Shown here piece by piece: positions 502 through 59,112 of a stretch of 64,000 nt of DNA. The translations under genes were made by a program, and so were the position numbers. The stretch's first letter is position 1. Each line of letters begins with the position of its first letter. Source of the stretch: Escherichia phage AV117; the sequence record OR352947.1; one strand, written 5' to 3'. Below the pieces are notes generated by a model that saw nothing but the letters and a program-made list of their open reading frames with translations, was not told the DNA's origin and did no database searches.

Positions 502-517
502 GGGAGCCGAAGCTCCC
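502..517 (-). terminator. UUCG-tetraloop hairpin (GGGAGC-UUCG-GCUCCC) between two minus-strand genes
   Basis: Perfect 6-bp GC-rich stem with UUCG loop on minus-strand RNA. Confidence 0.5.
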
Positions 518-524
518 AGTTAAA

Positions 525-890
525 TTAGATATCAAATTCGTTAAGAACTACATCAAAGATTGCTTCGAGATGTTCAGGTTTAGCTCGGTTACTCAGGATA
601 TGACGAATCCAAGTTTTAACCAGAAGTTTACGATTAACACCGTTCCAGCAAGGATGAGTACCTAAATCACGTTGACGGAAATCGTCATCTAATGCAATTT
701 TGAAGTTGGAACCTTCCATCGTGATTGAAACCGTGATACCATTTTCAAATCGCATATAAACGTAATTAGGAGTCATATACTGCTCAATTTCACATACTGA
801 ACCGTTATTATGCTTCCATAAGCAAATCGTATCAATAGAACCAGCAATACCGTTAGAAACATATTTACGTTCGAAGTTGATGTAGTTCAT
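525..890 (-). CDS. hypothetical protein (121 aa)
   Basis: ORF track; tightly packed in minus-strand early gene array. Confidence 0.6.
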   Translation of the reverse strand: MNYINFERKYVSNGIAGSIDTICLWKHNNGSVCEIEQYMTPNYVYMRFENGITVSITMEGSNFKIALDDDFRQRDLGTHPCWNGVNRKLLVKTWIRHILSNRAKPEHLEAIFDVVLNEFDI

Positions 891-964
891 TTTATTCTCC
901 AGATGTTTAAGTTGTTTGTTGGTACAGGACTATAATAACAAAACCTGTACCAAAGTAAACTGTT

Positions 965-1333
965 TTATGCAACTTTAATCCAATTGTCTAAATTTAAAAC
1001 ACCTTTGGCTTTCATTTTTTCGATCAGGTTATCTGCTGTAATGCGTCCATTTTGATACCATGTAACATCTTCAGAGTAACCAGTTTCTTCGTCAACATAT
1101 GTTTCTGAACGAATTTTACCGGTAATAATAGTTTTTAATTCGTATGTGTCACCTGTGAAAAAGTTTGCTAACACAATTTTCCAAGAGAAATCATCTGAAG
1201 GACCTTCAGGGGTCATACAACCTACGAACTCAAATTGCTCTTTGTATAACATCCACTGGAATTCTTTAATTTCGATAGCTTTATAACCGTCGTGGTCTTT
1301 ACATTTGATGTATGAGTTCAGATTGATTTTCAT
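965..1333 (-). CDS. hypothetical protein (122 aa)
   Basis: ORF track; promoter-like element upstream. Confidence 0.6.
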   Translation of the reverse strand: MKINLNSYIKCKDHDGYKAIEIKEFQWMLYKEQFEFVGCMTPEGPSDDFSWKIVLANFFTGDTYELKTIITGKIRSETYVDEETGYSEDVTWYQNGRITADNLIEKMKAKGVLNLDNWIKVA

Positions 1334-1374
1334 TTTATTCTCCGATTGTTTTATTGATTAGGTGGTACAAGTCT

Positions 1375-1403
1375 ATAGTAACACATCCTACAGGAGAGTA
1401 AAC
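1375..1403 (-). promoter_or_regulatory. T4 early-type promoter-like element (-35 GTTTAC, -10 TACTAT), approximate
   Basis: gtaaac on + strand at 1398-1403 with A/T hexamer about 17 nt away, directly upstream of minus-strand gene. Confidence 0.4.
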
Positions 1404-1442
1404 ATCTTTTTTTTAAACTTTTTCTGCCCTAAACGCACAAAA

Positions 1443-1460
1443 GGGAGACCGAAGTCTCCC
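1443..1460 (-). terminator. UUCG-tetraloop hairpin (GGGAGAC-UUCG-GUCUCCC)
   Basis: Perfect 7-bp stem with UUCG loop immediately after stop of small ORF 1469..1645. Confidence 0.6.
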
Positions 1461-1468
1461 TAAAATTA

Positions 1469-1645
1469 TGCAACAACCTTTCCAAAACGAGAAGCATCAT
1501 CTCGAAGAACTGCACGTGCTCTGCGCATGATCTTCTCAACTGTTTGATTAATACGAGAGTTCGACCCACGCTTGTATCCAGCGCGTTTAGAGGTACCATC
1601 AACTTTCTTTTCAACTGCTTTCTTTGCTTTAGCTTGTTTTGCCAT
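1469..1645 (-). CDS. small basic protein, 58 aa (MAKQAKAKKAVEKKVDGTSKRAGYKRGSN...), below ORF-track size cut-off
   Basis: Manual translation; stop abuts UUCG hairpin; coordinates hand-counted. Confidence 0.4.
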
Positions 1646-1808
1646 TATAAATTCTCTTTAAATGAAAATGCAGGACTTATTGACATTGCCTGCGCAAGCC
1701 CTCAAGGGGAACATAGGTTTTGGATATTTAACGACAGGATAACCATAAACCCGTCATCATACCTACCATGACTTACACAGCTAACATTTTGCTGACGCAT
1801 GATAGTAA

Positions 1809-2057
1809 TTATTTCAAAGTAATAACAAAATGACGAACTGCTTTACGTGCTGCAGAAGCCAGAGGCTTAGCATATTTCAATTCATCTTTAGCTTCCAGTT
1901 CAGAAGCCAGAGTAGCCTGAGCAGGATTCAGATGTTTGAAATATCGCAGGATTTCCAGTGCTTCGGCTTCAACATCAATAGATGCGCCGTAATTGTCATG
2001 GCCATTATTCCATGCATGGCGTTGCAGTTCAAGAGCGTGTTGTAATTGTTTAGTCAT
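1809..2057 (-). CDS. rIII: rIII lysis-inhibition accessory protein
   Basis: 82 aa, position next to gene 31, sequence matches recalled T4 rIII. Confidence 0.8.
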   Translation of the reverse strand: MTKQLQHALELQRHAWNNGHDNYGASIDVEAEALEILRYFKHLNPAQATLASELEAKDELKYAKPLASAARKAVRHFVITLK

Positions 2058-2173
2058 TTTAAATTCTCAATTCGAGATAATATTTAGTAGCCACGTTCGT
2101 CTGAATTTCACCTTCTTTCGACAAGTCTCTCAGTTGTAGGCTACCGCTTAGAAGAGTGTTCTCTTCATATAGT

Positions 2174-2181
2174 TATTTATA
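2174..2181 (-). promoter_or_regulatory. late promoter-like TATAAATA box upstream of rIII
   Basis: tatttata on + strand, about 115 nt upstream of rIII start on minus strand. Confidence 0.35.
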
Positions 2182-2514
2182 TCACTTATAAAGACACGGA
2201 ATAGCTTTATAGTGGCATGTTACGAATTTCTGTTTAATTTCTTTAGGTTGTTTAAGTCCCAAAGCCACAAATGGATGCGGAACATTTCGAATTTGTCCAA
2301 CTGGTAGTGGAGTCAAATCACCGACTTCAACAAAACCTTCAGGAACATCAGGACCTACAGAATGAACTACACATAGTTCAGGAACTTCACCTTGAACACG
2401 TTTACCAATCACAAGTCCTGATTCTGTAACTTCTTCATCACCTGCTTGTGCGGGTTCAGAAACCAGAATGACATATTCACCAACAGCACGAATTGGGAGT
2501 TGTACTTCAGACAT
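2182..2514 (-). CDS. 31: gp31 co-chaperonin (GroES-like) for capsid protein folding
   Basis: 110 aa; near-identical to recalled T4 gp31 (MSEVQ...[24 protein letters not shown]...). Confidence 0.9.
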
Positions 2515-2571
2515 CTTATTTCCTTGTTGTTTGACGATAGATTAATAATACCATACTATTCGTAAAGCATA

Positions 2572-2880
2572 TTACATAAGAAGCAAACGTTCTACCGGAG
2601 TGCCATCAACCGAAATTACTTTATCAAGGCGGAAAGAACGCCACTGACCTAACTTGGTATCGAATGCTCGAACTGATTCACGAGGTTCATAACGAACTTC
2701 TGTTGCTGGATTGTTATTTTCGTATTTGACTTCAAGTTCATCGCGCGAAGCAAACATAGTGCGTACCTCGCCGTTAGCCTTTTCAAATACAACACAATGA
2801 ACGCCTACAGACAGAATAGTTTTAATACGTTCACGAAGAACCATAGTTTCTTGTTCAGTTAAAATCATATTATTCACCAC
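2572..2880 (-). CDS. hypothetical protein (102 aa), T4 31.x-like position
   Basis: ORF track; synteny. Confidence 0.55.
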   Translation of the reverse strand: MVNNMILTEQETMVLRERIKTILSVGVHCVVFEKANGEVRTMFASRDELEVKYENNNPATEVRYEPRESVRAFDTKLGQWRSFRLDKVISVDGTPVERLLLM

Positions 2881-3451
2881 AAAAGTTTCGGATTTGTTCC
2901 CAATTCAGAGAACGAAGATTATTACGAGAGTACTGAATTACTTCAATACCAGCTTGTTTTAGAATGTCTGCCCAATTTTCAGGAGATCGGTCATATAATT
3001 CTGCATATACAACCTTTTTAATACCTGACTGTGTAATAGCTTTAGTGCAATCAGGACATGGAGAAAGTGTCGTATACAACGTAGCACCTTCAATAGAATT
3101 ACCTTTACGAGCTGCAAACAAAATTGCATTCAGTTCCGCATGGATTTCGTTATTAGCGGACCATGCACTATGAGCAGCCCGATGTTCTTTAGCCAAAACA
3201 AAATTATCGGCCCGTCCAAATGCTGTAGTGCCTTCTTTATGCCCAGCAACGATGACTGGGATTGGTTTATTCTTCAACCAACCATTTTCAGATGCATGTT
3301 CGCAACAGTTAACGCCACCTGCAGGTGAACCGTTATACCCAGTAGAAATAATGCGCCCATCTTTTTCAATGACTGCGCCAACTTTCCATGAACAACATTT
3401 TGATTCTTGAGAAATCAGATATGCAATCTGAAGGTATGTGCTAGCTTTCAT
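2870..3451 (-). CDS. cd: dCMP deaminase
   Basis: 193 aa; cytidine/dCMP deaminase zinc motifs (CAEH...PCPDC); T4 cd position. Confidence 0.9.
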   Translation of the reverse strand: MKASTYLQIAYLISQESKCCSWKVGAVIEKDGRIISTGYNGSPAGGVNCCEHASENGWLKNKPIPVIVAGHKEGTTAFGRADNFVLAKEHRAAHSAWSANNEIHAELNAILFAARKGNSIEGATLYTTLSPCPDCTKAITQSGIKKVVYAELYDRSPENWADILKQAGIEVIQYSRNNLRSLNWEQIRNFCGE

Positions 3452-4443
3452 TATTGAACCTTATTAATATAAGTTAACAGCTCTTTAGTTTGTTCCCAAC
3501 TGATGCACGCATCGGTAACGGAAACGCCATAGGACATATTATCAGAAATTTTTTGATTTCCTTCATGTAGGAATGATTCTATCATAATTCCTTTGACCAA
3601 ATCATTAGCTGCTAAATTTTTACCAATACCAATTTGATTGCTATAATGACCATCAGCGTTTGCATGGCTACAGTCAACCATTACATAATGATTCAGACCT
3701 ACTGCCCTTGCTTTGTTAGAAGCTTCTTGAATATCAGAAGAATGATAGTTCGGGCCGTTGGTCCCGCCACGCAATACGATATGCGTATTCTGATTACCTT
3801 CAGCTTCAACAATGCCTACAGTACCATCGACGTCCATACCCATATACCGATGAGGCCAGGCGGCACTATACATCGCGTCTGTAGCTACTTTAATAGAACC
3901 ATTGGTTGCGTTCTTGAAGCCTACGCACATCGGTAGACCTGAAGCAATTTCACGATGTGTCTGACTTTCAGTCGTACGGGCGCCAATAGCAACCCATGAG
4001 AAAATACCAGAAAGATACTTAATCGTGAATGGGTCTAATACTTCAGTTGCTAATGGAAGTCCCATACGTAGAAGTTTACGACACAATGTTCGTGCAACTA
4101 TAAGACCGTGGTTCATATCAAAACTTCCGTCAAGATATGGATCATTTACAAGACCTTTCCAACCTACGGTAGTTCGAGGCTTTTCAAAATAAACGCGCAT
4201 CACTAACAGAACATTAGGAAGACGAGTTTGAAGTTCAGCCAGACGTTTGCCGTATTCAACAGCAGCAATAGGGTCATGAATTGAACAAGGACCTACAACA
4301 ATAAGTTTGCGTGGGTCTTCACCGTTCATAATCGAATTAACTTGTTCGCGATGAGAAGCCACTTGTGATGCGTAAGCTTCCGACAAAGGAATAATCTCAG
4401 CCAGTTCTTTTGGAGAAATAAGTTTTCTGATGACAGGTAACAT
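3451..4443 (-). CDS. 3-deoxy-7-phosphoheptulonate (DAHP) synthase, class I AroG/AroF-like
   Basis: 330 aa; colinear similarity to E. coli AroG including VMRVYFEKPRTTVGWKGL, IGARTTESQ, GFKN, ILRGG, SHAN, ESxLxEGNQ motifs. Confidence 0.85.
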   Translation of the reverse strand: MLPVIRKLISPKELAEIIPLSEAYASQVASHREQVNSIMNGEDPRKLIVVGPCSIHDPIAAVEYGKRLAELQTRLPNVLLVMRVYFEKPRTTVGWKGLVNDPYLDGSFDMNHGLIVARTLCRKLLRMGLPLATEVLDPFTIKYLSGIFSWVAIGARTTESQTHREIASGLPMCVGFKNATNGSIKVATDAMYSAAWPHRYMGMDVDGTVGIVEAEGNQNTHIVLRGGTNGPNYHSSDIQEASNKARAVGLNHYVMVDCSHANADGHYSNQIGIGKNLAANDLVKGIMIESFLHEGNQKISDNMSYGVSVTDACISWEQTKELLTYINKVQ

Positions 4444-4563
4444 AACAATCCTTAGGAGATATAAACAGATTCTGATTCAACAATACCTTTAACCGGATTA
4501 GACAGGCTAAGTTAGTAGTGCTCAGATTTATGACCATTCTCGATAGTAATTAGATAACTCTCA

Positions 4564-4800
4564 TTATAGTGTTCCATATACTCGAGTTGCTTCAACGAGA
4601 CCATCACTGCCTAATTTAAGATTAGTAATTTGGTCACCATCTTTAGGATTAACGATTATGAGAAAAGAACGAGGAGATTCTTGAATAACTCGTAATGTTG
4701 CATCCTGGAAACGTTCAGACACTTTATTGATGAGTGTTTGAGCGAATTCTTTTACTTTAATCTGAAATTCGTGTACTGTAATTGGATTTTCACTTAGCAT
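4564..4800 (-). CDS. hypothetical protein (78 aa)
   Basis: ORF track; promoter-like element upstream. Confidence 0.5.
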   Translation of the reverse strand: MLSENPITVHEFQIKVKEFAQTLINKVSERFQDATLRVIQESPRSFLIIVNPKDGDQITNLKLGSDGLVEATRVYGTL

Positions 4801-4827
4801 TTCGATTTCCTCATTTTGGTAGAGTTA

Positions 4828-4857
4828 ATCATATCACAACTCTACTGTGTTGTAAAC
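4828..4857 (-). promoter_or_regulatory. early-type promoter-like element (-35 GTTTAC), approximate
   Basis: gtaaac at 4852-4857 on + strand upstream of minus-strand ORF; inverted repeat in spacer. Confidence 0.4.
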
Positions 4858-5133
4858 TTAAATTGCAAAACATTTAATTTCTTGTGAATCGAAATCAACT
4901 TCACATTGAATTACTAGATCAGCGTCAAGTCCAAACACAACAATCACATGAGCCGAACTTGGCAACAGTGTAACAGACACAGAATCCACTTGGTCTGGCA
5001 CCAGCGTATTCAAAACGTAGAGTAGTTCAGAGTGGATCTTAAGCTCGGTGGCCGTATCCGGCTTATCAAAGAAATGATTTGCGATAATCTGACTAAAAAC
5101 TACCTTTACAATTTCAGAATATTTAGGGAACAT
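4858..5133 (-). CDS. hypothetical protein (91 aa)
   Basis: ORF track. Confidence 0.5.
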   Translation of the reverse strand: MFPKYSEIVKVVFSQIIANHFFDKPDTATELKIHSELLYVLNTLVPDQVDSVSVTLLPSSAHVIVVFGLDADLVIQCEVDFDSQEIKCFAI

Positions 5134-5140
5134 AATTACC

Positions 5141-5365
5141 TCAGTGCACAGTATTTACTTTAACTCGAACAACAAATCGCTCGGTTGGTTCACCTACAGG
5201 AACAAACTCTACATGATATTCACCTTTGTAACGAGTATTCAGATCATTACGAATTCCTGCGAGTTTGTTGATTAATGTAGGACTCATATTAAGTCCCACT
5301 AGTTTACGAAGCATTTTGTATGCTTCATCTTCGATTTCATGATGTTTATCGTACATAGTTTTCAT
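5141..5365 (-). CDS. hypothetical protein (74 aa)
   Basis: ORF track. Confidence 0.5.
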   Translation of the reverse strand: MKTMYDKHHEIEDEAYKMLRKLVGLNMSPTLINKLAGIRNDLNTRYKGEYHVEFVPVGEPTERFVVRVKVNTVH

Positions 5366-5536
5366 TTAACCATTCAATTGCCTGGTCGACGTTATCAAAT
5401 ATACTGCCGTCCAACCATTCTTCATGTTCATAGTCCAGCACATCAATACCGAACCGTCCATTTACTAAAGGCCATACTACAAACAAATATTCTTTATGCT
5501 GTTCGATGGCCTCAATCACTTCATATAATCGTTTCA

Positions 5537-5537
<1 letters not shown>
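5346..5537 (-). CDS. hypothetical protein (63 aa)
   Basis: ORF track. Confidence 0.45.
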
Positions 5538-6623
<1,086 letters not shown>

Positions 6624-6624
<1 letters not shown>

Positions 6625-6923
6625 TATTTTATTCCTAAGAAAATTTCAAGAATACGAATGTTATGCTCGCGCCGGTCTTTATTAATTTCAGCAACGTTTT
6701 TATTAATTGACGTACTTCTAACGTTTGAAGAAATAAATTTAATCATATGACTTTTGAGTTGTTGCAAATCCAACCCTTTTTCTTTAGCAGCTTTACGAAG
6801 AGCTTTACCTGCTTCATCTAGTGCCTTTGCTGCATCTTTGTCATAATTGCCAAGTGACATTCCACGACAGATATCAATATACTCATCAGACCGTTTGATG
6901 TAATTCTCTAGTAATGTTTTCAT
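6624..6923 (-). CDS. hypothetical protein (99 aa)
   Basis: ORF track; promoter-like element upstream. Confidence 0.5.
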
Positions 6924-6951
6924 TTAGATTTCCTCAATTATCCATAGGAGC

Positions 6952-6981
6952 ATTATACTCTGCTCCTGAGAGTTTGTAAAC
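6952..6981 (-). promoter_or_regulatory. early-type promoter-like element (-35 GTTTAC, -10 TATAAT) with inverted repeat AGGAGCA/TGCTCCT bracketing -10
   Basis: gtaaac at 6976-6981; attata at 6952-6957; inverted repeat 6946-6967. Confidence 0.5.
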
Positions 6982-7205
6982 TATTTTACTAAAGATTCAA
7001 TATACTCGTGAAGAGCTTTAGTCGCTACTGCCCACTTATTCTGATATTCATTTTTCAGATTAGCACGAGACTGAACTAACAATCGGTCATTAGTCGGAGG
7101 CAAAGATTCTAATCGTTGAATCTGGCGCCCATAAATCATAGCCGCCATTTCAGATTCATAGATAAGCCCTTTAATGTATTCATGCTGTTCTTTAGTCATT
7201 GGCAT
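6981..7205 (-). CDS. hypothetical protein (74 aa)
   Basis: ORF track. Confidence 0.5.
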   Translation of the reverse strand: MPMTKEQHEYIKGLIYESEMAAMIYGRQIQRLESLPPTNDRLLVQSRANLKNEYQNKWAVATKALHEYIESLVK

Positions 7206-7486
7206 TTTTCCTCTTTTAAACCACTACGATAATAACATATCATAGTCTTCTGGTCATGTACATATCTTTTTACGTCGTTTAACCAGATACGAAATTCTTG
7301 AGAGTCTTCAAACGGCATTCCAACCCACGGATTACCATCAATAACCTTTACTTGCCATTTCTGGTTATATTCAACAATAGATTCAGGCCATGGCGGATGT
7401 AAAGTTTCTTTAGGGCTTAAGGGCACATCCTGGGCACATCCGGCCAAAATGCCAATAGATAATACAACTGCGGTTAATTTAATCAT
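7196..7486 (-). CDS. putative lipoprotein (96 aa; signal peptide with LAGC lipobox)
   Basis: N-terminus MIKLTAVVLSIGILAGCAQ. Confidence 0.55.
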   Translation of the reverse strand: MIKLTAVVLSIGILAGCAQDVPLSPKETLHPPWPESIVEYNQKWQVKVIDGNPWVGMPFEDSQEFRIWLNDVKRYVHDQKTMICYYRSGLKEEKCQ

Positions 7487-7839
7487 TCTGAGAGCTTCCT
7501 GAGGTCTTCTGCAAAGGAATCGAAGGACCTGTTGATTTGTTTTTCGACCAATCCTGGTTTACTTGCCACCACGTTCTTCTTCTTCGAATCCTTACGGAGC
7601 TTTTCATTTTCGGCCTTAAGTTGGTCAACTAAAACACGGTTCTTATAAGTCATTTCTTCGATTGACTGATATTGAACCTTGAAGTCGTCTAATACTTTAG
7701 CATTGTTTTTAGCGGTCTCTTTGACAGAAGCTAATTCAGTATTCAACGAATCAACTTTGTTGTTTAAGACAACTATTGTTGCCGTAGAAACTAGAGCAAA
7801 AGCTGTTACTATAGCATAAATCGGATTTACTTTAAGCAT
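7483..7839 (-). CDS. hypothetical membrane-anchored coiled-coil protein (118 aa)
   Basis: N-terminal hydrophobic segment followed by charged heptad-like region. Confidence 0.5.
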   Translation of the reverse strand: MLKVNPIYAIVTAFALVSTATIVVLNNKVDSLNTELASVKETAKNNAKVLDDFKVQYQSIEEMTYKNRVLVDQLKAENEKLRKDSKKKNVVASKPGLVEKQINRSFDSFAEDLRKLSE

Positions 7840-8327
7840 GTTTTAATAATCTCAATGATTTCATCTCGGGATAATCCATTGATAAGAACGGTTTTCGGAC
7901 CATCACACTGGATTTTGTACGATTCAAACAATACACACAACTCTTCTGCTGTATGATATGGACTTGAAATTCCGAGGCGGTTGAATTTGTCGGTAAGAGG
8001 GTCGCAAATAATGTAGAATTTTATACCTGAGATATGTACGTTTGGTTGACTAATATTAATGAACACATTAGCATCATATTTAGTCAAATTGTTTTGAAGA
8101 AATTCTACCATGGCATTAACTGCTTCTGGCATCGCTTCACGTTTCTCTTCGGTGTAACGTGTTGAATATTCCTTTTGCTTTAACTTCTTTTTAGCATTTT
8201 TCGCTAGAGTAGTACGAAGGTCCGTAAGATAACCAACGGCACGGCCTTTCTTAAAGACCCGGATTCCATCTGTAGAATCACCAAATGCTGCCACAACCAT
8301 ATCGTTAGTAATCAATTGCATATTCAT
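7827..8327 (-). CDS. alc: Alc, host transcription termination/unmodified-DNA transcription inhibitor
   Basis: Position between pseT.x and rnlA; start set to internal ATG (MNMQLI...) preceded by GAGGAG; ORF-track start at 8390 lacks RBS. Confidence 0.65.
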   Translation of the reverse strand: MNMQLITNDMVVAAFGDSTDGIRVFKKGRAVGYLTDLRTTLAKNAKKKLKQKEYSTRYTEEKREAMPEAVNAMVEFLQNNLTKYDANVFINISQPNVHISGIKFYIICDPLTDKFNRLGISSPYHTAEELCVLFESYKIQCDGPKTVLINGLSRDEIIEIIKTCLK

Positions 8328-8357
8328 AATTTTCTCCTCGTGATGTTGATAAAAGCC

Positions 8358-8387
8358 ATAGTAACACCTTCCTTGGTGTTTGTAAAC
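8358..8387 (-). promoter_or_regulatory. early-type promoter-like element (-35 GTTTAC) with CACC..GGTG inverted repeat in spacer
   Basis: gtaaac 8382-8387 between rnlA stop and alc start. Confidence 0.4.
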
Positions 8388-8389
8388 CA

Positions 8390-9523
<1,134 letters not shown>

Positions 9524-9540
9524 TCAGTTAGTTTTTTTAA

Positions 9541-9570
9541 ATTGTACCACAATCCTTGTGGCATGTAAAC
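9541..9570 (-). promoter_or_regulatory. early-type promoter-like element (-35 GTTTAC, -10 TACAAT) with CCACAA..TTGTGG inverted repeat
   Basis: gtaaac 9565-9570 upstream of rnlA. Confidence 0.4.
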
Positions 9571-9980
9571 TACTTTTTCTTATGTTGGATATTCCAAGGC
9601 GGGTTGAACTTTTTGATAAAAAGCGGTTCTTCAAGGTCCATTGTTGCGATGGTCATTGAACCAAGTTCATTGGTGACTGAAAGGTCAAAACATTGGCGGG
9701 CCCAGAATTCAACCTTTTTGCCTTGCATTAAGGCATCCAAAATCATAAGTGATTTTCTTGAATCTGAAGTCTGGTCTTTTCGATTTATGGCTGTTCGATA
9801 ATAGTTAATGCGTTTCTTTAAATTCTTGGTTTTACCAATATACACAAGCTCGTCATCTATAGCAATAGCGTATATGACATTTTTCTTATTAGGGACGTCA
9901 ACTGTTTTAATTGTTGCATCTTCTAATAGCTCCAATTCTGTATATTTAATAAAGGAATATTCGGCGGCAATATCTTTCAT
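9570..9980 (-). CDS. denA: endonuclease II (GIY-YIG-like nicking endonuclease for cytosine DNA)
   Basis: 136 aa; GIY-YIG-like segment (VIYAIAIDDELVYIGKTKNLKKRINYY); T4 position next to nrdB. Confidence 0.8.
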   Translation of the reverse strand: MKDIAAEYSFIKYTELELLEDATIKTVDVPNKKNVIYAIAIDDELVYIGKTKNLKKRINYYRTAINRKDQTSDSRKSLMILDALMQGKKVEFWARQCFDLSVTNELGSMTIATMDLEEPLFIKKFNPPWNIQHKKK

Positions 9981-9988
9981 AATAAAGT

Positions 9989-10002
9989 GGGACCGAAGTC
10001 CC
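9989..10002 (-). terminator. UUCG-tetraloop hairpin (GGGAC-UUCG-GUCCC) between nrdB and denA
   Basis: Perfect 5-bp stem with UUCG loop. Confidence 0.5.
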
Positions 10003-10006
10003 GTCC

Positions 10007-11185
10007 TTAGAAATATTTTTTGTATGAATTGATTACATTTTGGTCTACATCATTATCAATTTGTGCGACAAGATAAGAACTGATTTCAACTTCCTGAGGA
10101 GCTGATTGAACTAAATCAGAGTTCAGATATTCACGAATCCAAGGATACGGATGCTTGGTCGGAGCATCAGTGATTGGACATGGCAAACCGCACTGTTTCA
10201 TACGAGACACAGTCAAGTAATCAACAAAAGCACACATACTCTGCGTATTGATACCTGGACATGTACCATCTTTAAAGAGGTGTGCAGCCCATTCCTTCTC
10301 TTGTCTATTTACTTCCATAAAAATGTCAACTGCTTCTTGTTCACATTCTTTAGCAATTTGAACCCACTCATCACCATCAGTACCAGATTGAAGTTGACGG
10401 ATAATGTACTGAGTACCCTTAAGGTGGAGTTGTTCGTCACGAGCAATGAACTTCATAATCTTTGCATTACCTTCCATAATTTCCATATTTTTATGGAAGT
10501 TGAAAGTACATGCAAATGATACGTAAAAACGAATAGCTTCTAAGGCATTGATAACATGCAAACAGAGATAAAGAGACTTCATTAAATCACGCTTAGCAGC
10601 GGCTTCTTGCTTAATAGCACGTTCTAATTGAAGGTCTGCATTAATTGACGCTTTGGCTAGTTCCGTGAATTCTTTCTGGTTTTCCCAATGACGAGTCTTG
10701 ACTAGAACATCATCGTAATATTTACCTATTGATTCAGCTCGTTTCATGATTGCTTCGTCTAATACAATTTCATCAAATACCTTAGATGGGTCTGTATAAA
10801 GATTTCGCATAATATGTGTATACGAACGAGAGTGAATAGTTTCACTGAATGTCCATGTTGCAACCCACGTATCTAATGAAGGGTCAGAAATCAGTGCCAT
10901 AAGTACCGCAGATGGGGCCCTGCCTTGGATAGAATCTAATAATGATTGATACTTAAGATTGTTTGTAAAGATGTCCTGTTGGAACTGAGGAAGCTTATTG
11001 AACTGCGCAGAGTCCAACATCAAGTTTACCTCTTCTGGGCGCCAAAAAAATGATAATTGCTTTTCGGTCAAATCTTCAAAAACTTTATGGCGTTGAATAT
11101 CATAACGCGCAATACCAAGTCCAGAACCAAAGAACATCGGTTCATTCAAAACATCGACTTGTTGTGTGTTAAAAACTGTACTCAT
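10007..11185 (-). CDS. nrdB: ribonucleotide reductase small subunit (class Ia), uninterrupted
   Basis: 392 aa continuous ORF with di-iron/tyrosyl radical protein features; no intron-like interruption. Confidence 0.9.
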   Translation of the reverse strand: MSTVFNTQQVDVLNEPMFFGSGLGIARYDIQRHKVFEDLTEKQLSFFWRPEEVNLMLDSAQFNKLPQFQQDIFTNNLKYQSLLDSIQGRAPSAVLMALISDPSLDTWVATWTFSETIHSRSYTHIMRNLYTDPSKVFDEIVLDEAIMKRAESIGKYYDDVLVKTRHWENQKEFTELAKASINADLQLERAIKQEAAAKRDLMKSLYLCLHVINALEAIRFYVSFACTFNFHKNMEIMEGNAKIMKFIARDEQLHLKGTQYIIRQLQSGTDGDEWVQIAKECEQEAVDIFMEVNRQEKEWAAHLFKDGTCPGINTQSMCAFVDYLTVSRMKQCGLPCPITDAPTKHPYPWIREYLNSDLVQSAPQEVEISSYLVAQIDNDVDQNVINSYKKYF

Positions 11186-11238
11186 TATATTTTCTCACTT
11201 AGTTTAACTCATCCATGAGTAAATTATAATCAAAAGTC

Positions 11239-13494
11239 TTAAAGCTTACAAGCAGAACAATCTTCAGCTTTAGGTGTTTCTAATTCATAGTCATCTGTAC
11301 CTGACCCATCACGAGTGTTATGATAGTAGAGATTTTTTCCACCAAAGTACCAGAAGTAAAGCAGATCGTCAAGCATTACTGACATTGGCACTTTACCTTT
11401 CTCAAATACTGCAGGGTCATAGTAAGTATTAGCAGAAGCAGATTGGCACACCCATTTCAACATGATAGCAACTTGGGTCAAATAAGGTTTATTACCTTTC
11501 TTAGCAAGTTTCCACGCGTAGTCATAAAGACCCATGTTATGTTCTATATTAGGAACAACCTGACGGAAGTTGCCTTCTTTAGATTCTTTAATACTTACCG
11601 GACCGCGCGGGGGCTCAATCCCGTTTGTAGAGTTTGATACTTGACTGCTTGACTCACAAGGCATGAGTGCAGACAACGTTGAGTTACGAATTCCATGTTC
11701 TTTGAGTTCAGCTCGAAGTTCTTCCCAGTCACAGACGTAGTTCGGGGCTGCGATTTGGTCAATCTTTTTATTGTACCAGTCGATAGGTAATTCGCCTCTA
11801 GACCATTTAGTGTCTGAATAATACTCGCAACATCCTTTTTCTTTGGCGAGTTTGATTGAAGCTTTGATAAGGCCATATTGCAATCTCTCAAACAATTCAT
11901 GAGTCAAATCGTTAGCGTCTTCATATGAAGCAAAGTTGGAAGCTAACCATGCAGCATAGTTCGTAACACCAACACCAAGATTACGACGCTTTTTAGCTTT
12001 TAAAGCTTCTGGAACCGGATAATCTTGATAGTCTAACAGGTTATCAAGTGCACGTACTTGTACTTCGGCAAGTTCATTAATTTTGTCTTGGTCTTGCCAA
12101 TCAAATTTATCTAATACAAAAGCAGATAATGTGCATAAACCAATTTCAGCATCGGGACCATTCACATCATTAGTTGGAATAGCGATTTCACAACATAAGT
12201 TACTCTGACGAATTGGAGCTTTTTCACGAATAAATGGAGTATAGTTATTAGTGTTATCAACAAACTGTGGATAAATTCGAGCAGTACCAGAACGTTCAGT
12301 CATGAACAATTCAAAGAGTTCTAGTGCTTTGATTCTTTTCTTTCTGATTGTCGGGTCTTTTTCAGCTTTCTCATAAAGCTCACGGAATTTATCTTGATCT
12401 TCAAAGAACGAGTAGTATAGTTCGCCTGACATTTCGTGAGGGCTAAATAAAGTAATATAATCATTTTTACCAAGGCGTTCCATCATGAGGTCATTAATCT
12501 GAATTCCGTAGTCCATATGTCGAATACGGTTTTCATCCACGCCTTTGTTATTTTTCAGAACTAATAGGTTCTCTACTTCTAAGTGCCACATCGGATAATA
12601 CGCTGTAGCAGCACCACCACGAATACCACCTTGAGAACAAGATTTTACTGCAGTTTGGAAATGTTTCCAGAATGGAATAACACCTGTATGTCGAACTTCA
12701 CCCATACCGATCTTAGAACCTTCTGCACGAAGCATACCAACGTTGATACCGATACCAGCTCGTTTAGAAATATATTCAATAATTGATGCTGAAGTTTTGT
12801 TAATAGATTTTAACGAATCACCGGCTTCAATAACTACACAACTAGAGAACTGGCGAGTCGGAGTACGAGCACCTGCCATAATTGGGGTTGGCAATGAAAC
12901 TTGATGAGTAGAAACGGCATCATAAAAACGAATAATATGTTTCAAACGGTCATGAGTTTCGTCTTGGTGTAAGGCCATACCAATAGCCATGATAGCAAAC
13001 TGTGGAGTTTCATAAATCTTCCCAGTTGTTTTATCTTTAACTAGATATTTTTCTTTAAGCTGCATAGCACCAGCATAAGTCAGGTCAAAGTCTCGTTCAT
13101 GTTTAATCTGTGAATCGAGATAAATGATTTCTTCTGCTGAATATTGAGACAACAGCTCAGGGTCATATTTGCCTTCATTAACACAGTAAGAAATATGGTC
13201 GATAAAAGCAGGCGGTTCAAACTGCCCGTATACATCTTTACGAAGTGCAAACATTAATCCTTTAGCGGCGACATACTGATAATCAGGGTCTTCGACAGAA
13301 ATCAAGTTAGCTGCAACTTTAATACAAATCTTCTGAATATCTTTGGTGCTCATCCCATCGACAAGATGGGTCTTAATTTCTTCGTATAATTCATATGGGT
13401 CAATTTGTGTTCCTTCACATTGCCAAGTTAAAACTTGAATAATTTTCTGTGCATCAAAATTTTGAGATACACCACTGCTCTTAGTTACTTGCAT
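11239..13494 (-). CDS. nrdA: ribonucleotide reductase large subunit (class Ia)
   Basis: 751 aa; ATP-cone N-terminus and C-terminal redox cysteines; T4 NrdA-like. Confidence 0.95.
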   Translation of the reverse strand: MQVTKSSGVSQNFDAQKIIQVLTWQCEGTQIDPYELYEEIKTHLVDGMSTKDIQKICIKVAANLISVEDPDYQYVAAKGLMFALRKDVYGQFEPPAFIDHISYCVNEGKYDPELLSQYSAEEIIYLDSQIKHERDFDLTYAGAMQLKEKYLVKDKTTGKIYETPQFAIMAIGMALHQDETHDRLKHIIRFYDAVSTHQVSLPTPIMAGARTPTRQFSSCVVIEAGDSLKSINKTSASIIEYISKRAGIGINVGMLRAEGSKIGMGEVRHTGVIPFWKHFQTAVKSCSQGGIRGGAATAYYPMWHLEVENLLVLKNNKGVDENRIRHMDYGIQINDLMMERLGKNDYITLFSPHEMSGELYYSFFEDQDKFRELYEKAEKDPTIRKKRIKALELFELFMTERSGTARIYPQFVDNTNNYTPFIREKAPIRQSNLCCEIAIPTNDVNGPDAEIGLCTLSAFVLDKFDWQDQDKINELAEVQVRALDNLLDYQDYPVPEALKAKKRRNLGVGVTNYAAWLASNFASYEDANDLTHELFERLQYGLIKASIKLAKEKGCCEYYSDTKWSRGELPIDWYNKKIDQIAAPNYVCDWEELRAELKEHGIRNSTLSALMPCESSSQVSNSTNGIEPPRGPVSIKESKEGNFRQVVPNIEHNMGLYDYAWKLAKKGNKPYLTQVAIMLKWVCQSASANTYYDPAVFEKGKVPMSVMLDDLLYFWYFGGKNLYYHNTRDGSGTDDYELETPKAEDCSACKL

Positions 13495-13790
13495 ATGTCC
13501 TCTATATTAAATTCATCTTTAAAAAGTTTATTAACCACTAGAGCTATTATATCACCATGACAGGCTTTTGGTTTACATGTGCATCCTAATCGCATCCCAC
13601 GTAAAGGTTCAAGATGAGCTTTTGTGATTTCTCCGCTTCTAATTCTTTTAATAAAATCCTTTTTGAAAAGCTCAATAGCTTCTTCTCGAGAAGAGGCCTC
13701 CTTGCCTACATAATTTCCCCAGAATGTGCCACGATGAATATTAACATCAAAATCTGATTTGTATTTATTCACTACGCGGCATATTTTCAT
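13485..13790 (-). CDS. hypothetical protein (101 aa) with Cys/His cluster (GCTCKPKACHGD)
   Basis: ORF track. Confidence 0.5.
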   Translation of the reverse strand: MKICRVVNKYKSDFDVNIHRGTFWGNYVGKEASSREEAIELFKKDFIKRIRSGEITKAHLEPLRGMRLGCTCKPKACHGDIIALVVNKLFKDEFNIEDICK

Positions 13791-14008
13791 GTTACGTCAA
13801 CCTCAAACCAACAGTCATAAACATTATCCAAAAGATTATGCTTATTATATTCATACACCTTTGTAACAGAGAGAACTCTCTCTTCAAAGCCGTCGACATT
13901 AATTGTCTCAGTTTTAATAGGGAGCTCAAGAGGATTAGCATTATAAAGTTCAGCTAACACCTTTTTACTACCATGTCCTTTACGAACAATACGAATATTG
14001 ATACCCAT
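13787..14008 (-). CDS. hypothetical protein (73 aa)
   Basis: ORF track. Confidence 0.45.
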   Translation of the reverse strand: MGINIRIVRKGHGSKKVLAELYNANPLELPIKTETINVDGFEERVLSVTKVYEYNKHNLLDNVYDCWFEVDVT

Positions 14009-14256
14009 TAGTTATGTTCCAATTCTTCATATTCTTTAGGTGTCAAGACTGTGATATCAAAATAAACCAACGGTTCTTTTTCTATACCGTAACCACCACA
14101 AAATTCACGATATTCATAAATTCGTTCGTGTGAATAACAAATGAATCGTTCACCTTTAACTGTGATTTCACTATTCGGTGAAGGGATATCCAGTTCACTT
14201 GGATTTTTCATTTCAAAAATTGTGGTGCCATATGAATTAATAAAACGTAAAATCAT
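14008..14256 (-). CDS. hypothetical protein (82 aa)
   Basis: ORF track. Confidence 0.45.
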   Translation of the reverse strand: MILRFINSYGTTIFEMKNPSELDIPSPNSEITVKGERFICYSHERIYEYREFCGGYGIEKEPLVYFDITVLTPKEYEELEHN

Positions 14257-15952
<1,696 letters not shown>

Positions 15953-15986
15953 TTTATTCTCCTCTTCACTTTTATTTGATAGGACT

Positions 15987-43839: not shown

Positions 43840-43851
43840 GGGCCGAAGCCC
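43840..43851 (-). terminator. UUCG-tetraloop hairpin (GGGC-UUCG-GCCC) immediately after upstream gene stop
   Basis: 4-bp GC stem with UUCG loop. Confidence 0.4.
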
Positions 43852-44277
43852 TTATTTAAATTTAATTTTCTGAAGTGCATCAATTGCAGCCAAACGCCCT
43901 TGTTCACTTTTAACTGTAATAACCACATCACCTGATACGATCACCGAACCATCAACAAATTCTACAGAGCCTTTTTTGAAATCGACAGCTGTATCTGGTT
44001 CCGGAACTTCTTCAAAGAATTTAAATTCTGCACCATAAAGCAGAATATCACCTTGCATACTATGAATAGTTCGGCCATAATCGCCTACGGCTTCTACGGC
44101 AATAACCGAAACGCCGTAACCAATCATCTCTTCCACAATAAAATCTTTGGACAATAAAGTAGTATGCAGATTAGTATTAAGACGTTTACCAGTCGTATTA
44201 AGAATTCTCAAGAAATTATCTTCTTGACCTTTGATAATACGATATTTCTTACCAACTTCAAAACCTTTAAAAGCCAT
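43852..44277 (-). CDS. hypothetical protein (141 aa)
   Basis: ORF track. Confidence 0.55.
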   Translation of the reverse strand: MAFKGFEVGKKYRIIKGQEDNFLRILNTTGKRLNTNLHTTLLSKDFIVEEMIGYGVSVIAVEAVGDYGRTIHSMQGDILLYGAEFKFFEEVPEPDTAVDFKKGSVEFVDGSVIVSGDVVITVKSEQGRLAAIDALQKIKFK

Positions 44278-44890: not shown

Positions 44891-45144
44891 TAAGTTGTAC
44901 CATTTTCAGTGATTTCACGGAAGATGCCATAGATAGGCATTTCGTCACCGAGTTTTTCGTAAACGTAAACCACTTCGGTGTAGCATAAAAATTCGGTCCA
45001 GTTTTTCTGTACAACAACTAAATCAGGATTAAACAGAACATCTTCAAACTCATCGATGTTTGAATCAGTAGTTACGTTTTTAATGATTTGACGTTTCATA
45101 ATATTCTCCTCTTGTTTTGATAGGTCTATAGTATCATAGACCAT
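44872..45144 (-). CDS. hypothetical protein (90 aa)
   Basis: ORF track. Confidence 0.5.
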
Positions 45145-53067: not shown

Positions 53068-53224
53068 CCATCATGAATGAGTGTACGACTACATCATCAT
53101 AATATCCAAGACCGTATTTCAACGAAACTTCTTGAGCAATCAAAGCACCTAATGTGTTATTAGGTTTAATCCAGCGATTTAACATATTGTTCTCCTCTTG
53201 AGTAAGTAAAGAATATCTTAACAC
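52958..53224 (-). CDS. hypothetical protein (88 aa)
   Basis: ORF track. Confidence 0.5.
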   Translation of the reverse strand: MLRYSLLTQEENNMLNRWIKPNNTLGALIAQEVSLKYGLGYYDDVVVHSFMMDGEDVKFNAEIRWDDGGVRFVRGTINAYDAEEVVCC

Positions 53225-53267
53225 AGTTTTTAGTGGTTGTAAACTGTAGGTAGAAACAAAAAAAAAA

Positions 53268-53285
53268 GGAATCCCGAAGGATTCC
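53268..53285 (-). terminator. intrinsic terminator after soc: GGAAUCC-UUCG-GGAUUCC followed by U9
   Basis: Hairpin plus poly-A on + strand (poly-U on transcript). Confidence 0.75.
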
Positions 53286-53294
53286 TTAAATTAT

Positions 53295-57077: not shown

Positions 57078-57106
57078 TTTAACTCCTTAGTTGATTTGAT
57101 AGGACT

Positions 57107-57136
57107 ACTATACTATAGTCCATCTATAATGTAAAC
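57107..57136 (-). promoter_or_regulatory. early-type promoter-like element (-35 GTTTAC) with GGACTA/TAGTCC inverted repeat
   Basis: gtaaac 57131-57136. Confidence 0.45.
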
Positions 57137-57450: not shown

Positions 57451-57819
57451 TTAATTAAATTTGTTTAAACGTTCAATACACTGGACGTAGTTATTTGCGA
57501 TTTGTTTCTGGGTAGGCTCTTTACCGGTTGTTTCAACATAGCGAATGAATGCTATTTCAGTAGCCTGTAGACAATGTTCTTTAACGCGTTGTTCTTTTGG
57601 CAATGCTACAGTATCAGAGTCACGATAACGTTGAGCATGGGCATCAGCTTGAATCATTCGATTACCTACAGTAACCGGGTCTTCCACTTCAACTTTAGGT
57701 TGGTCATACTGTTTAACATTCGGATTGTAAATCAGTTGGCCAACGTTATTAGGGATAAAGCCATGGGCACCACATCCGGTTAATCCAAATACCATTGCTA
57801 AAGCGATTAATTTTTTCAT
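57451..57819 (-). CDS. putative lipoprotein (122 aa; LTGC lipobox)
   Basis: N-terminus MKKLIALAMVFGLTGCGA. Confidence 0.55.
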   Translation of the reverse strand: MKKLIALAMVFGLTGCGAHGFIPNNVGQLIYNPNVKQYDQPKVEVEDPVTVGNRMIQADAHAQRYRDSDTVALPKEQRVKEHCLQATEIAFIRYVETTGKEPTQKQIANNYVQCIERLNKFN

Positions 57820-57837
57820 TTCAATTTCCTCTGTAGT

Positions 57838-57867
57838 TGATAGAAAGATAGTAACACAGTATGCGAT
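57838..57867 (-). promoter_or_regulatory. early-type promoter-like element (-35 GTTTAC, -10 TACTAT)
   Basis: gtaaac 57862-57867. Confidence 0.45.
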
Positions 57868-57879
57868 GCTTGTAAACAG

Positions 57880-58092
57880 CTATTTTAAACTTTTGCGAAA
57901 TTTGCGTTTTTCTTGACGAATCTGTCGTTTAGTCGGACGTACAGCAAATTTAACGAAGTCCACTTTGCCATGTGGAAACTTTTCAGATGCTTCACAGTCC
58001 ATCATTAGTTCCCATCCTTCCAGAATAAGAGCTTTCCATTGCGTAGTTGATGCAAATTCGTATGTTGATGGTTTAAACACAGTTGAATACAT
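57880..58092 (-). CDS. hypothetical protein (70 aa)
   Basis: ORF track. Confidence 0.45.
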   Translation of the reverse strand: MYSTVFKPSTYEFASTTQWKALILEGWELMMDCEASEKFPHGKVDFVKFAVRPTKRQIRQEKRKFRKSLK

Positions 58093-58093
58093 A

Positions 58094-58306
58094 TTATCCT
58101 CTTAAATCAGCTTCAAAAACTTTCTCGTCATTAACAAATGCTTTAACTAATGCGTTGTTCACTTCAGCAAGTTGTACAGCAACCCACTCAATTTCTTCAC
58201 GGTCACCTGATAACATGATATCTTTAGTGAACATCTCACCGCTTTTAAACCAACCAATAAAAGTAACTTTAGTTAATTTGCTCATATTTCCTCGCAAAAT
58301 GCCCAT
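58094..58306 (-). CDS. hypothetical protein (70 aa)
   Basis: ORF track. Confidence 0.45.
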   Translation of the reverse strand: MGILRGNMSKLTKVTFIGWFKSGEMFTKDIMLSGDREEIEWVAVQLAEVNNALVKAFVNDEKVFEADLRG

Positions 58307-58599
58307 TCAGCGTGATAAACTGTAGCACCTTTAGTATCATTCATTTGAACTACATCTACCGGAGAAATTACTCGATAGAGACGTGGTTCACCTCCATAAG
58401 AGCGTGCTGCTCGTCCTGCATAAATCTTTGCTAAACCGATATCTTCAGTAAAGAATACCCGATCCAAGTTTTTCTTACGTCCTGTTTCAGACAGAACTCC
58501 TGTTTCTTCAGGAGGACAAAGCATGTTTTCGATGTTAGCTGAACTACTTGAACCGTGATAAAAAATCTTAAATTCTGCTTTACAATCGATGGTTTTCAT
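58282..58599 (-). CDS. hypothetical protein (105 aa)
   Basis: ORF track. Confidence 0.5.
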   Translation of the reverse strand: MKTIDCKAEFKIFYHGSSSSANIENMLCPPEETGVLSETGRKKNLDRVFFTEDIGLAKIYAGRAARSYGGEPRLYRVISPVDVVQMNDTKGATVYHAEWAFCEEI

Positions 58600-58625
58600 T
58601 TTGTTCTCCAGTAGTTGATAGGTCT

Positions 58626-58654
58626 ATAATAACACAACTACTGGAGAAGTAAAC
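58626..58654 (-). promoter_or_regulatory. early promoter (-35 GTTTAC, 17 nt, -10 TATTAT); spacer carries reverse complement of downstream SD region
   Basis: gtaaac 58649-58654; ataata 58626-58631; inverted repeat 58606-58617 / 58635-58648. Confidence 0.55.
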
Positions 58655-59029
58655 TTAAAAACGTAATTTAGATACATCTGCGTTGATTTCGCTTTGGTTT
58701 GCGTCGTATGCAATTAAACGAACAGCTTTAGATGGGTCATTCAATGCATAGAAATGATGGAACATTGCTCGAACGATATCACCATTTACGAGTTCTACCT
58801 GGATAGGAGAACCTTTTTCGAGTTGGAAATGTTCATAAGCTTTGATGGTTCGCAGATAATCAAGTTTTTGATTTCCGGCTCCAACAATTTGTACAATACG
58901 TTTGCCCATGTTTTCCATACGAGATACAATAGTTTTAGGAGCAAGAATAACGTAGGTTGCCAGCGGAGAAACTACTTCAACAGTTGTGTTTTCGGTGATT
59001 GCAGTAAAAATTGCTTGAGACATATTCAT
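58655..59029 (-). CDS. hypothetical protein (124 aa)
   Basis: ORF track. Confidence 0.5.
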   Translation of the reverse strand: MNMSQAIFTAITENTTVEVVSPLATYVILAPKTIVSRMENMGKRIVQIVGAGNQKLDYLRTIKAYEHFQLEKGSPIQVELVNGDIVRAMFHHFYALNDPSKAVRLIAYDANQSEINADVSKLRF

Positions 59030-59058
59030 AATGTTTTCCTCTTGGTTTGTGTAAGTAC

Positions 59059-59088
59059 ATCATATCATGCCTAGAGGAAGATGTAAAC
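59059..59088 (-). promoter_or_regulatory. early-type promoter-like element (-35 GTTTAC) directly downstream of gp41 terminator hairpin
   Basis: gtaaac 59083-59088. Confidence 0.4.
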
Positions 59089-59094
59089 CCCGAA

Positions 59095-59112
59095 AGGAGA
59101 CCGAAGTCTCCT
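59095..59112 (-). terminator. UUCG-tetraloop hairpin terminator after gene 41 (AGGAGAC-UUCG-GUCUCCU)
   Basis: 7-bp stem; T-run follows on + strand side. Confidence 0.55.

Follow-up and report, generated by a model that had tools for sequence, protein, structure and literature searches.

The window analysed here, a 64,000-nt stretch of DNA from Escherichia phage AV117 (sequence record OR352947.1), carries a recurrent element at its gene ends: a short GC-rich hairpin with a UUCG tetraloop. We consider that these elements are very probably C(UUCG)G-capped hairpins of T4-type phage mRNAs, which act at the RNA level and whose roles are set by the context downstream of each copy. Their existence, excess, strand specificity, position, conservation with compensatory changes and downstream promoter motifs were observed directly. 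The initial annotation, made from the letters of the sequence, had listed twelve such stems and read them as a mixture of terminators and non-terminating hairpins. This reading is supported and fits both the anatomy of the copies and the T4 literature.

A perfect inverted repeat around TTCG, in the orientation of the adjoining genes, is present at all 12 listed sites, and the starts listed in the initial annotation lie within 0-2 nt of the extents given in Table 1 (the G-rich core). The stems are perfect and 5-9 bp long. The annotated count of "at least twelve" was right for the intergenic copies and overlooked two structured copies, one in gene 40 and one in a homologue of T4 52.1; the C(UUCG)G closing pair (CTTCGG) is found in all 12 listed copies and in both extra ones. 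Free-energy calculation, a check named in the initial annotation, predicts clean single hairpins for the twelve, with nearest-neighbour free energies (ΔG) of -9 to -14 kcal/mol and z-scores of -1.9 to -4.9 relative to shuffles. As had been claimed, the UUCG reads on the sense (mRNA) strand in every window copy and the listed hairpins stand at gene ends, each of the twelve starting at -2 to +7 nt relative to the stop of the open reading frame (ORF) before it, with ends refined by the ORF listing.

These hairpins are far in excess of chance. In 300 dinucleotide-preserving shuffles of the window, stems of at least 5, 6 and 7 bp were expected 0.64, 0.15 and 0.03 times, and they were observed 15, 12 and 9 times, respectively. 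UUCG is the commonest tetraloop of the window, occurring 12 times among stems of at least 6 bp, with the runner-up loop occurring twice. In a general hairpin scan (loop 3-8 nt, ΔG <= -7), it caps 12 of the 24 stable sense-strand hairpins in the non-coding share of the window, which amounts to 6.4%. The stem GGGAGAC/GUCUCCC, for which four copies had been reported, occurs exactly three times (1442, 16510 and 24832), and the supposed fourth copy at 59093 has the stem GGAGAC/GUCUCC; another stem, GGGAGC/GCUCCC, is present in two copies (501 and 33484). The fifteenth match, at 13987-14000, was set aside as noise, being an all-AU stem with a ΔG of 0 within a 73-aa ORF, and four 4-bp UUCG stems within coding sequence were also treated as noise. 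Since an Rfam scan of the whole window at gathering thresholds gave no matches, the short hairpins lie outside any curated family, and the absence of a match is expected for hairpins so short and generic.

Table 1. UUCG-capped hairpins of the window, with gene blocks and other features discussed in the text. ORF, open reading frame; SD, Shine-Dalgarno sequence. Gene blocks and gene orders are from the transfer of the ST0 gene table.
Feature	Position	Strand	5' arm-loop-3' arm	Location	Tail; tail score	Flanking elements
Hairpin after 30.7-like ORF	501-518	minus	UGGGAGC-UUCG-GCUCCCA	6 nt after stop	no U-run; 0.6	then CU-GAGG (SD, 495-498); AUG of next ORF 11 nt on
Hairpin after 30.9	1442-1461	minus	AGGGAGAC-UUCG-GUCUCCCU	4 nt after stop	UUUUGUG; 3.6	early promoter GTTTAC-N17-TACTAT at 1375-1403
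Hairpin at nrdB-denA	9989-10002	minus	GGGAC-UUCG-GUCCC	between nrdB stop/SD and denA AUG	1.2	UAAGGA (nrdB stop and SD-like, 10004-10009), 1 nt, 14-nt hairpin, 8 nt, AUG
Hairpin after gene 32	16510-16527	minus	GGGAGAC-UUCG-GUCUCCC	6 nt after stop	UUUUG; 3.4 (flagged terminator-like)	early-type promoter 16450-16478
Hairpin after gene 35	24832-24849	plus	GGGAGAC-UUCG-GUCUCCC	5 nt after stop	AUUUUUG; 2.5	late promoter TATAAATA at 24857-24864, before gene 36
Hairpin before gene 38	29047-29062	plus	AGGGGC-UUCG-GCCCCU	between SD and gene 38 AUG (29070)	2.3	SD UAAGGAG (29040-29046, overlaps gene 37 stop), 16-nt hairpin, 7 nt, AUG
Hairpin downstream of gene 52	33484-33501	minus	AGGGAGC-UUCG-GCUCCCU	overlaps stop of 26-aa ORF downstream of gene 52	UUUUGUGCAUUUUU; 3.7	early-type promoter 33431-33459
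Hairpin after rIIB	37331-37346	minus	GGGGAC-UUCG-GUCCCC	5 nt after stop	UUUUUCUUU; 4.6 (second strongest)	then SD AGGGG, AUG 19 nt on
Hairpin after gene 39	41955-41972	minus	AAGCUCC-UUCG-GGAGCUU	overlaps gene 39 stop codon	CAUUUUAAUUUU; 2.8	next AUG 26 nt on, no promoter between
Hairpin at 39.1/39	43838-43853	minus	AAGGGC-UUCG-GCCCUU	overlaps stop of 39.1-like ORF	4.3	U-tract continues into MotA box UUUGCUUUA, then -10 TAGAAT (43811-43835), ahead of gene 39
Hairpin after soc	53266-53287	minus	AAGGAAUCC-UUCG-GGAUUCCUU	7 nt after stop	U10; 6.4	early-type promoter 53215-53244
Hairpin after gene 41	59093-59114	minus	AAAGGAGAC-UUCG-GUCUCCUUU	3 nt after stop	UUUCGGGG; 2.6	early-type promoter 59059-59088 immediately after
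Hairpin in gene 40 (ΔG -14.3)	60850-60869	minus	UCCCCUUC-UUCG-GAAGGGGA	5' part of coding sequence, 34 nt after uvsX stop	no U-run; 0.1	
Hairpin in 52.1 homologue (ΔG -14.3)	35008-35029	minus	GCAGGAGCC-UUCG-GGCUCUUGU	about codons 6-12 of the 46-aa ORF		perfect core 35012-35025, extended with G-U pairs
Second recurring hairpin family	15978-16005, 35971-35998, 36481-36506, 45123-45142, 57102-57121	minus		intergenic		
SD-pairing hairpins	6946-6967, 35730-35753	minus				AUG immediately after
Region absent from ST0	13485-14008	minus		between nrdA and nrdA.2-like ORF		
26-aa ORF	33500-33580	minus		just 3' of gene 52		
52.1 homologue, 46 aa	34905-35045	minus				start overlaps stop of preceding ORF
Gene 39, 605 aa	41974-43788	minus				
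Early/middle genes	1-19711 and 30294-64000	minus				
Gene order, part 1		minus		30.x, rIII, 31, cd, pseT, alc, rnlA, denA, nrdB, nrdA, td, frd, 32, 59, 33, dsbA, rnh		
Gene order, part 2		minus		asiA, motA, 52, ndd, denB, rIIB, rIIA, 39, motB, dexA, dda, srd, modA/B, mrh, soc, 56, 61, sp, imm, dmd, 41, 40, uvsX		
Late tail-fibre genes 34-38 and t	19815-30287	plus				

Selection on these hairpins acts at the RNA level, since the UUCG lies on the sense strand and some relatives have G-U pairs that work on that strand only. In a DNA palindrome of this kind, UUCG on one strand corresponds to CGAA on the opposite one. In 46 loci that surround gp41 homologues of 61-99% identity (965 kb, set in the orientation of gp41), UUCG copies number 104 in the sense and 5 in the antisense direction. 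UUCG caps 60 of the 160 distinct GC-rich tetraloop hairpins of these loci, GAAA being second with 16, and the base closing the loop is C in 60 of the 60 distinct UUCG copies. G-U or U-G pairs, workable on the sense strand only, were found in two relatives, L041 (after 41) and L008.

Conservation in related phages, another check named in the initial annotation, was followed by extracting the sequence 3' of each orthologous stop in about 90 related loci. These loci and T4 carry hairpins at the same junctions, and the stems show compensatory changes. The hairpin after soc and its U-run are kept in 37 loci over a range of Soc identity from 37 to 95%. In an alignment of 18 sequences, 98% of the cells are paired and 5 of the 9 pairs show changes on both sides; the covariation score is 0.373 vs 0.143, 0 of 500 shuffles reach this score, and slid registers score far lower. 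The hairpin is retained with different stems after 30.9, 32, 41, rIIB and 30.7 and at nrdB-denA. Each of the 20 distinct relatives has a hairpin and a U-run after 30.9, in versions that differ in stem and loop, and the gene 32 junction has UUCG, UACG or CUAGU loops on different stems. After gene 41, several lineages have a UUCG hairpin, on six different stems, followed by a U-run and GUUUAC, and one of these stems contains a sense-strand G-U pair; the hairpin is absent from T4-like lineages, a case of presence or absence by lineage. Relatives downstream of rIIB have UUCG or UCCG hairpins with the stems GGAGGC, GGGGC or GGGAC just before the next Shine-Dalgarno sequence (SD), and orthologues of the 501 hairpin have the stems GGGGC, GGAGGC and GGGCC, and in T4 a UUCA loop, before a conserved UGAGGAAA-AUG. 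Only the closest relative shares the hairpin after gene 39; the hairpins at this place in other lineages differ from it, and L082 has a different sequence.

The elements have a well-documented counterpart in T4. PMC4371310 and PMC8948821 (citing Tuerk et al. 1988, PNAS 85:1364) describe CUUCGG hairpins as found in T4 mRNA, exceptionally stable with their C-G closing pair, common intergenically and able to stop reverse transcriptase. The exceptional stability of the UUCG tetraloop was recognised through these T4 intercistronic hairpins. The window hairpins resemble them in having C(UUCG)G on a GC-rich stem, in phage group and in intercistronic preference. Orthologous junctions are occupied after soc, 30.9 and 39.1, in gene 40, at 37/38 and at 35/36. 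T4 has UUCG hairpins after 30.9, at 39.1/39 (AAAGGCC-UUCG-GGCCUUU, then AGCUUUA...TATAAT), after soc, in gene 40 and at 37/38, imperfect UUCG hairpins at 35/36 (followed by a U-run and TATAAATA) and after rIIB, and other loops after 30.7 (UUCA), at nrdB-denA (GCAA) and after gene 32 (CUAGA). On the other hand, stems of at least 5 bp in this region number 14 here and about 6 in T4, and T4 has its CUAGA loop after 32 and no hairpin after 41, whereas the window phage has UUCG at both. The initial annotation mentioned neither the classic identity of T4 CUUCGG hairpins nor the split ribosome-binding site of gene 38 described below.

The copies differ in what follows them. We graded the U-tract by a d'Aubenton-Carafa-type tail score, in which basal A-U pairs are counted as tail, and looked for T4-type promoter motifs between each hairpin and the start codon that follows it. 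A promoter lies directly downstream of 7 of the 12 copies (five early, one MotA-box middle and one late), and since a promoter directly follows each, these seven are considered to close transcription units. Strong U-runs (scores 3.4-6.4) follow six copies, namely those after 30.9, 32, the gene 52-distal ORF, rIIB, 39.1 and soc, and the tails after 35, 39 and 41 are borderline (2.5-2.8). Five of the seven promoter-linked copies have a strong U-tract, the other two, after 35 and 41, being intermediate. The anatomy of an intrinsic terminator is lacking at 501, at 9989 and in gene 40. The proposal that several copies are likely intrinsic terminators is supported by the six strong U-tracts, the seven linked promoters and published predictions. 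Its two examples fared unequally, in that the U-run after soc is strong (6.4) and that after 35 only intermediate (2.5). The published predictions place conserved terminators at 35/36 in 6 of 6 genomes, including RB69 and T4, and after 32 in 5 of 6 T4-like genomes (PMC1524935). Compared with bacterial Rho-independent terminators, six to eight window copies share the GC-rich stem of 5-9 bp, the short loop and the 3' U-tract. They differ in their short stems and almost uniform UUCG loop, in lying at most 7 nt from the stop and, for several copies, in having a weak U-tract or none.

The early promoters have the form GTTTAC-N17-TAnnAT and start about 5-60 nt from the hairpin. Five copies head an early-type cassette (1442, 16510, 33484, 53266 and 59093) and one a Mot-box cassette (43838). 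This layout is that of the PeSL and PmSL elements (Arbiol et al. 2010; Comeau et al. 2014), which consist of a stem-loop, then TTTACW-N17-TAYWAT or a TGCTT Mot box close behind it, and then an SD with its start codon (PMC4122927). The PeSL stem-loops were reported to terminate effectively in RB49 (PMC2839356). The window shares with these elements the succession of stem-loop, promoter, SD and start between small early genes, with five early-type and one middle-type cassette. It differs from them in that 5 of its 12 hairpins stand outside cassettes, and the focus of those papers is recombination and gene shuffling, the UUCG loop not being discussed; the terms TTCG, UUCG and tetraloop are absent from PMC2839356. 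The five early-type copies are PeSL-type terminator-promoter cassettes, that at 16510 being the predicted gene 32 terminator, and the copy at 43838 is a PmSL-type cassette of terminator and middle promoter. The hairpin after soc is, as judged by its stem and tail, a canonical intrinsic terminator. The MotA box TTTGCTTTA is directly continuous with the U-tract at 43838. At 43829-43837 and at many post-soc loci, the terminator U-tract is often continuous with the next MotA box (CCUUUUUUGCUUUUA...), so one short stretch would serve both termination and activator binding.

In the remaining five copies (501, 9989, 29047, 37331 and 41955), no promoter precedes the next start codon. The initial annotation suggested that hairpins without a U-run may be RNA stability or processing elements. 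A U-run is indeed lacking at 501, 9989 and 29047, all of which adjoin ribosome-binding sites, but at 29047 the role would be translational. This copy is the published split ribosome-binding site of gene 38 described by Nivinskas and colleagues, that is, the gene 38 case itself, and the region is nearly identical in T4. In T4 gene 38, the spacing between SD and AUG is reduced from 22 nt to 5 nt by the structure, and destabilising mutations in the leader structures of gene 38 and gene 25 reduce translation initiation (PMC3014915). In the window phage, the hairpin would likewise loop out 16 nt and bring SD and AUG to a working distance, as established for T4.

The same layout, a distant SD and AUG with the hairpin between them, was found at gene 38 and at denA. 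At nrdB-denA, 17 of 19 distinct relatives share one order of elements (SD, tetraloop hairpin, 7-10 nt, AUG), and the pair adjoining the closing pair is A-U, G-C or C-G. The 9989 hairpin, with its SD, 14-nt hairpin, 8 nt and AUG, is therefore probably a split ribosome-binding site for denA by analogy with the gene 38 and gene 25 leaders, a role suggested by layout and conservation; denA was not found as such a case in the literature searched. The 501 hairpin, its orthologues and many of the rIIB-distal orthologues lie directly 5' of the next SD, and the 501 hairpin could serve to insulate the SD or, once the RNA is cleaved, to protect its upstream part. The copies after rIIB and gene 39 probably act inside operons as attenuators, the former perhaps as a leaky terminator, or as 3' stabilisers.

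T4 precedent, together with the anatomy and conservation of the copies, suggests the following picture of how the hairpins may terminate transcription, stabilise RNA and affect translation in this phage. The short GC-rich stem with its very stable UUCG cap would fold upon transcription. At the seven promoter-linked copies, it would act as an intrinsic, often partial, terminator that ends one unit just before the next, and the 3' hairpin of the terminated RNA would also withstand 3'-to-5' exonucleases. The rIIB and gene 39 copies would give attenuation or 3' stabilisation within the operon, and those at 501, 9989 and 29047 would aid translation initiation at ribosome-binding sites.

Several points weigh against this picture. 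The U-tracts after 35 (2.5), 41 (2.6) and 39 (2.8) are only moderate, and these three copies may terminate weakly or not at all. The terminating ribosome could cover hairpins at most 7 nt from the stop and suppress their folding in coupled transcription-translation. The UUCG loop seems to be preferred and not required, since orthologous sites also carry other loops: they are usually UUCG and at times UCCG or UACG (UNCG), UUCU, UUUG, UUCA or loops of 5-6 nt. For denA, the split ribosome-binding site would hold by analogy only, and the U-rich tails at nrdB-denA in some relatives fit an attenuator. Our literature search found no usable T4 Term-seq or other 3'-end mapping study.

The hairpins might instead be mainly 3'-end stabilisers or processing barriers, with messages that read through, are cleaved by RegB or RNase E and are then trimmed by exonucleases back to the hairpin. 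A good U-tract is lacking at 501, 9989, 29047, 41955 and 59093, many copies are immediately followed by an SD identical or similar to the RegB consensus GGAGAAUAAAA, as is the case behind the 1442 and 33484 cassettes, and T4 mRNAs are degraded by E. coli 3' exonucleases (PMC3014915), all of which would suit such a role. During T4 infection, intergenic GGAG stem-loops, often with UUCG and including terminators, resist RegB (PMC1702504), which is relevant here since several window 5' arms contain GGAG. However, six copies have a canonical U-tract straight after the stem, relatives retain both stem and U-run after soc, 30.9 and 32, and the fresh promoter after seven copies is the layout expected of real terminators. 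PeSL stem-loops, moreover, terminate in RB49 reporter assays (PMC2839356). We therefore regard stabilisation as the main role of these hairpins as rather unlikely, compared with a role set by the downstream context.

Another possibility is that the hairpins matter mainly as DNA, as cores of mobile PeSL cassettes or recombination hot spots, with RNA folding being secondary. Single genomes do contain several identical copies of a stem (here three of GGGAGAC and two of GGGAGC, and in T4 two of GGACUCC), five copies form early-promoter cassettes, and PeSLs have been published as involved in modular shuffling and mini-circle formation (PMC2839356, PMC4122927). Three relatives also have an exact inversion of the loop on an unchanged stem, with CGAA for UUCG or AGAA for UUCU (L042 at about 16050 and L022 at about 16055, both after soc, and L053 after 30.9). 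These look like inversions of the loop within the palindrome, which suggests that loop flips do occur at the DNA level. A palindrome, however, gives no reason for UUCG to lie on the sense strand, yet the count is 104 to 5, and a sense-strand G-U pair is a C-A mismatch on the opposite strand. The same junctions are occupied over 37-95% protein identity with compensatory changes, which argues for vertical descent under structural selection, and 5 of the 12 hairpins lie outside any promoter cassette. Given the strand asymmetry and the G-U pairs, we rank a purely DNA-level role low and consider it quite improbable as the main explanation, although DNA-level and RNA-level roles are not mutually exclusive, the stem-loops being regarded as terminators in the PeSL papers too. 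The GGACUCC stem is common to the soc and 30.9 sites across several lineages, so the recurrence of stems within a genome is partly ancient, and no conclusion was drawn on intragenomic homogenisation of the stems.

The chance that the excess is an artefact of composition or coding, through random palindromes in an AT-rich genome or a by-product of codon use, is practically nil: 24 CTTCGG occurrences do lie outside hairpins and the weak matches (13987 and the four 4-bp stems) look accidental, but we reject this origin on the shuffle counts for stems of at least 5 and 7 bp, the concentration of 12 copies in the small non-coding share of the window, the strand bias, the conservation and the covariation.

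Thus C(UUCG)G-capped mRNA hairpins with context-dependent roles are the reading that we retain. The finding is correct but of little value as a discovery, since UUCG hairpins, PeSL and PmSL elements, terminator predictions for RB69 and its relatives and the gene 38 case have all been published. The comparison with relatives adds that UUCG is replaceable, that loops are occasionally inverted, that the closing C-G is invariant in UUCG copies and that denA shares the gene 38 layout.

The two extra copies lie inside coding sequence. The 35012 hairpin was rejected as intergenic, as it falls in the T4 52.1 homologue, which is unannotated. In T4 and other relatives, the counterpart occupies the same codons of 52.1 with a different stem and a 5-nt loop. 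The position of the gene 40 hairpin is kept in nearly all relatives with unrelated stems and with UUCG, UUUG, UCAG, GGAA, GAAG, CUAGU and other loops; the T4 version is UCCCCCUC-UUCG-GAGGGGGA. In the closest metagenomic relative (L005, at about 2405; 99%), UUUG replaces UUCG on an unchanged stem, a one-base loop change inside a single lineage. Both hairpins lie within the first 10-20 codons of a small gene that starts near the upstream stop, 52.1 overlapping that stop and gene 40 starting a few nucleotides upstream of the uvsX stop. They look like conserved RNA structures, with possible roles in defining where the upstream message ends or in adjusting translational coupling. That nrdB-denA, where the hairpin is capped by UUCG in most lineages and by GCAA in T4, is a third conserved split ribosome-binding site of the gene 38/25 type and, jointly, that the gene 40 and 52.1 hairpins form a distinct class is a tentative suggestion by analogy, which we hold to be possible if somewhat doubtful. 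If true, these cases would be fresh examples of known principles rather than new mechanisms.

The window belongs to a T-even phage. By megablast, it falls in the genus Mosigvirus (RB69/JS09 group), relatives of T4, long stretches of it being 96-98% identical to Escherichia phage ST0 and to numerous isolates like it, and its G+C content is 37.8%. Gene names were taken from the ST0 RefSeq gene table and carried onto the window by tblastn. For annotation, the hairpins and the promoter motifs following them provide a map of the transcription units in an RB69/JS09-like phage. They also point to small unannotated ORFs, namely the 26-aa ORF after gene 52, which encodes a hydrophobic peptide, and the 52.1 homologue, which encodes a membrane peptide; both are without annotation in ST0. 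Gene 39 is a single ORF here, whereas the large topoisomerase subunit of T4 is split between genes 39 and 60, and the translational bypass hairpin of T4 gene 60 is also UUCG-looped (T4 2837-2854). Near nrdA, about 440 nt absent from ST0 carry two ORFs of 101 and 73 aa; T4 has nrdA.1 and nrdA.2 at this place.

Two other kinds of hairpin recur in the window. A second intergenic family with five members has long stems, (G)AUAGGNCUAU / AUAGUAGUCCUAUC, and the loop G(G/U/A)UAUA, with a -10-like TATAGT or TATAAT in the loop and 3' arm. A hairpin of this type stands directly after gene 41 in T4 and other relatives, and the family probably corresponds to a PeSL variant whose stem-loop and -10 box overlap (PMC2839356). 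The other kind consists of two near-identical hairpins, AGGAGCA-GAGUAUAA-UGCUCCU (6946) and UGAGAGCA-GAGUAUAA-UGCUCUCA (35730), in which an SD-like 5' arm is paired with the 3' arm. By analogy with T4 gene e, these may be structures that mask translation.

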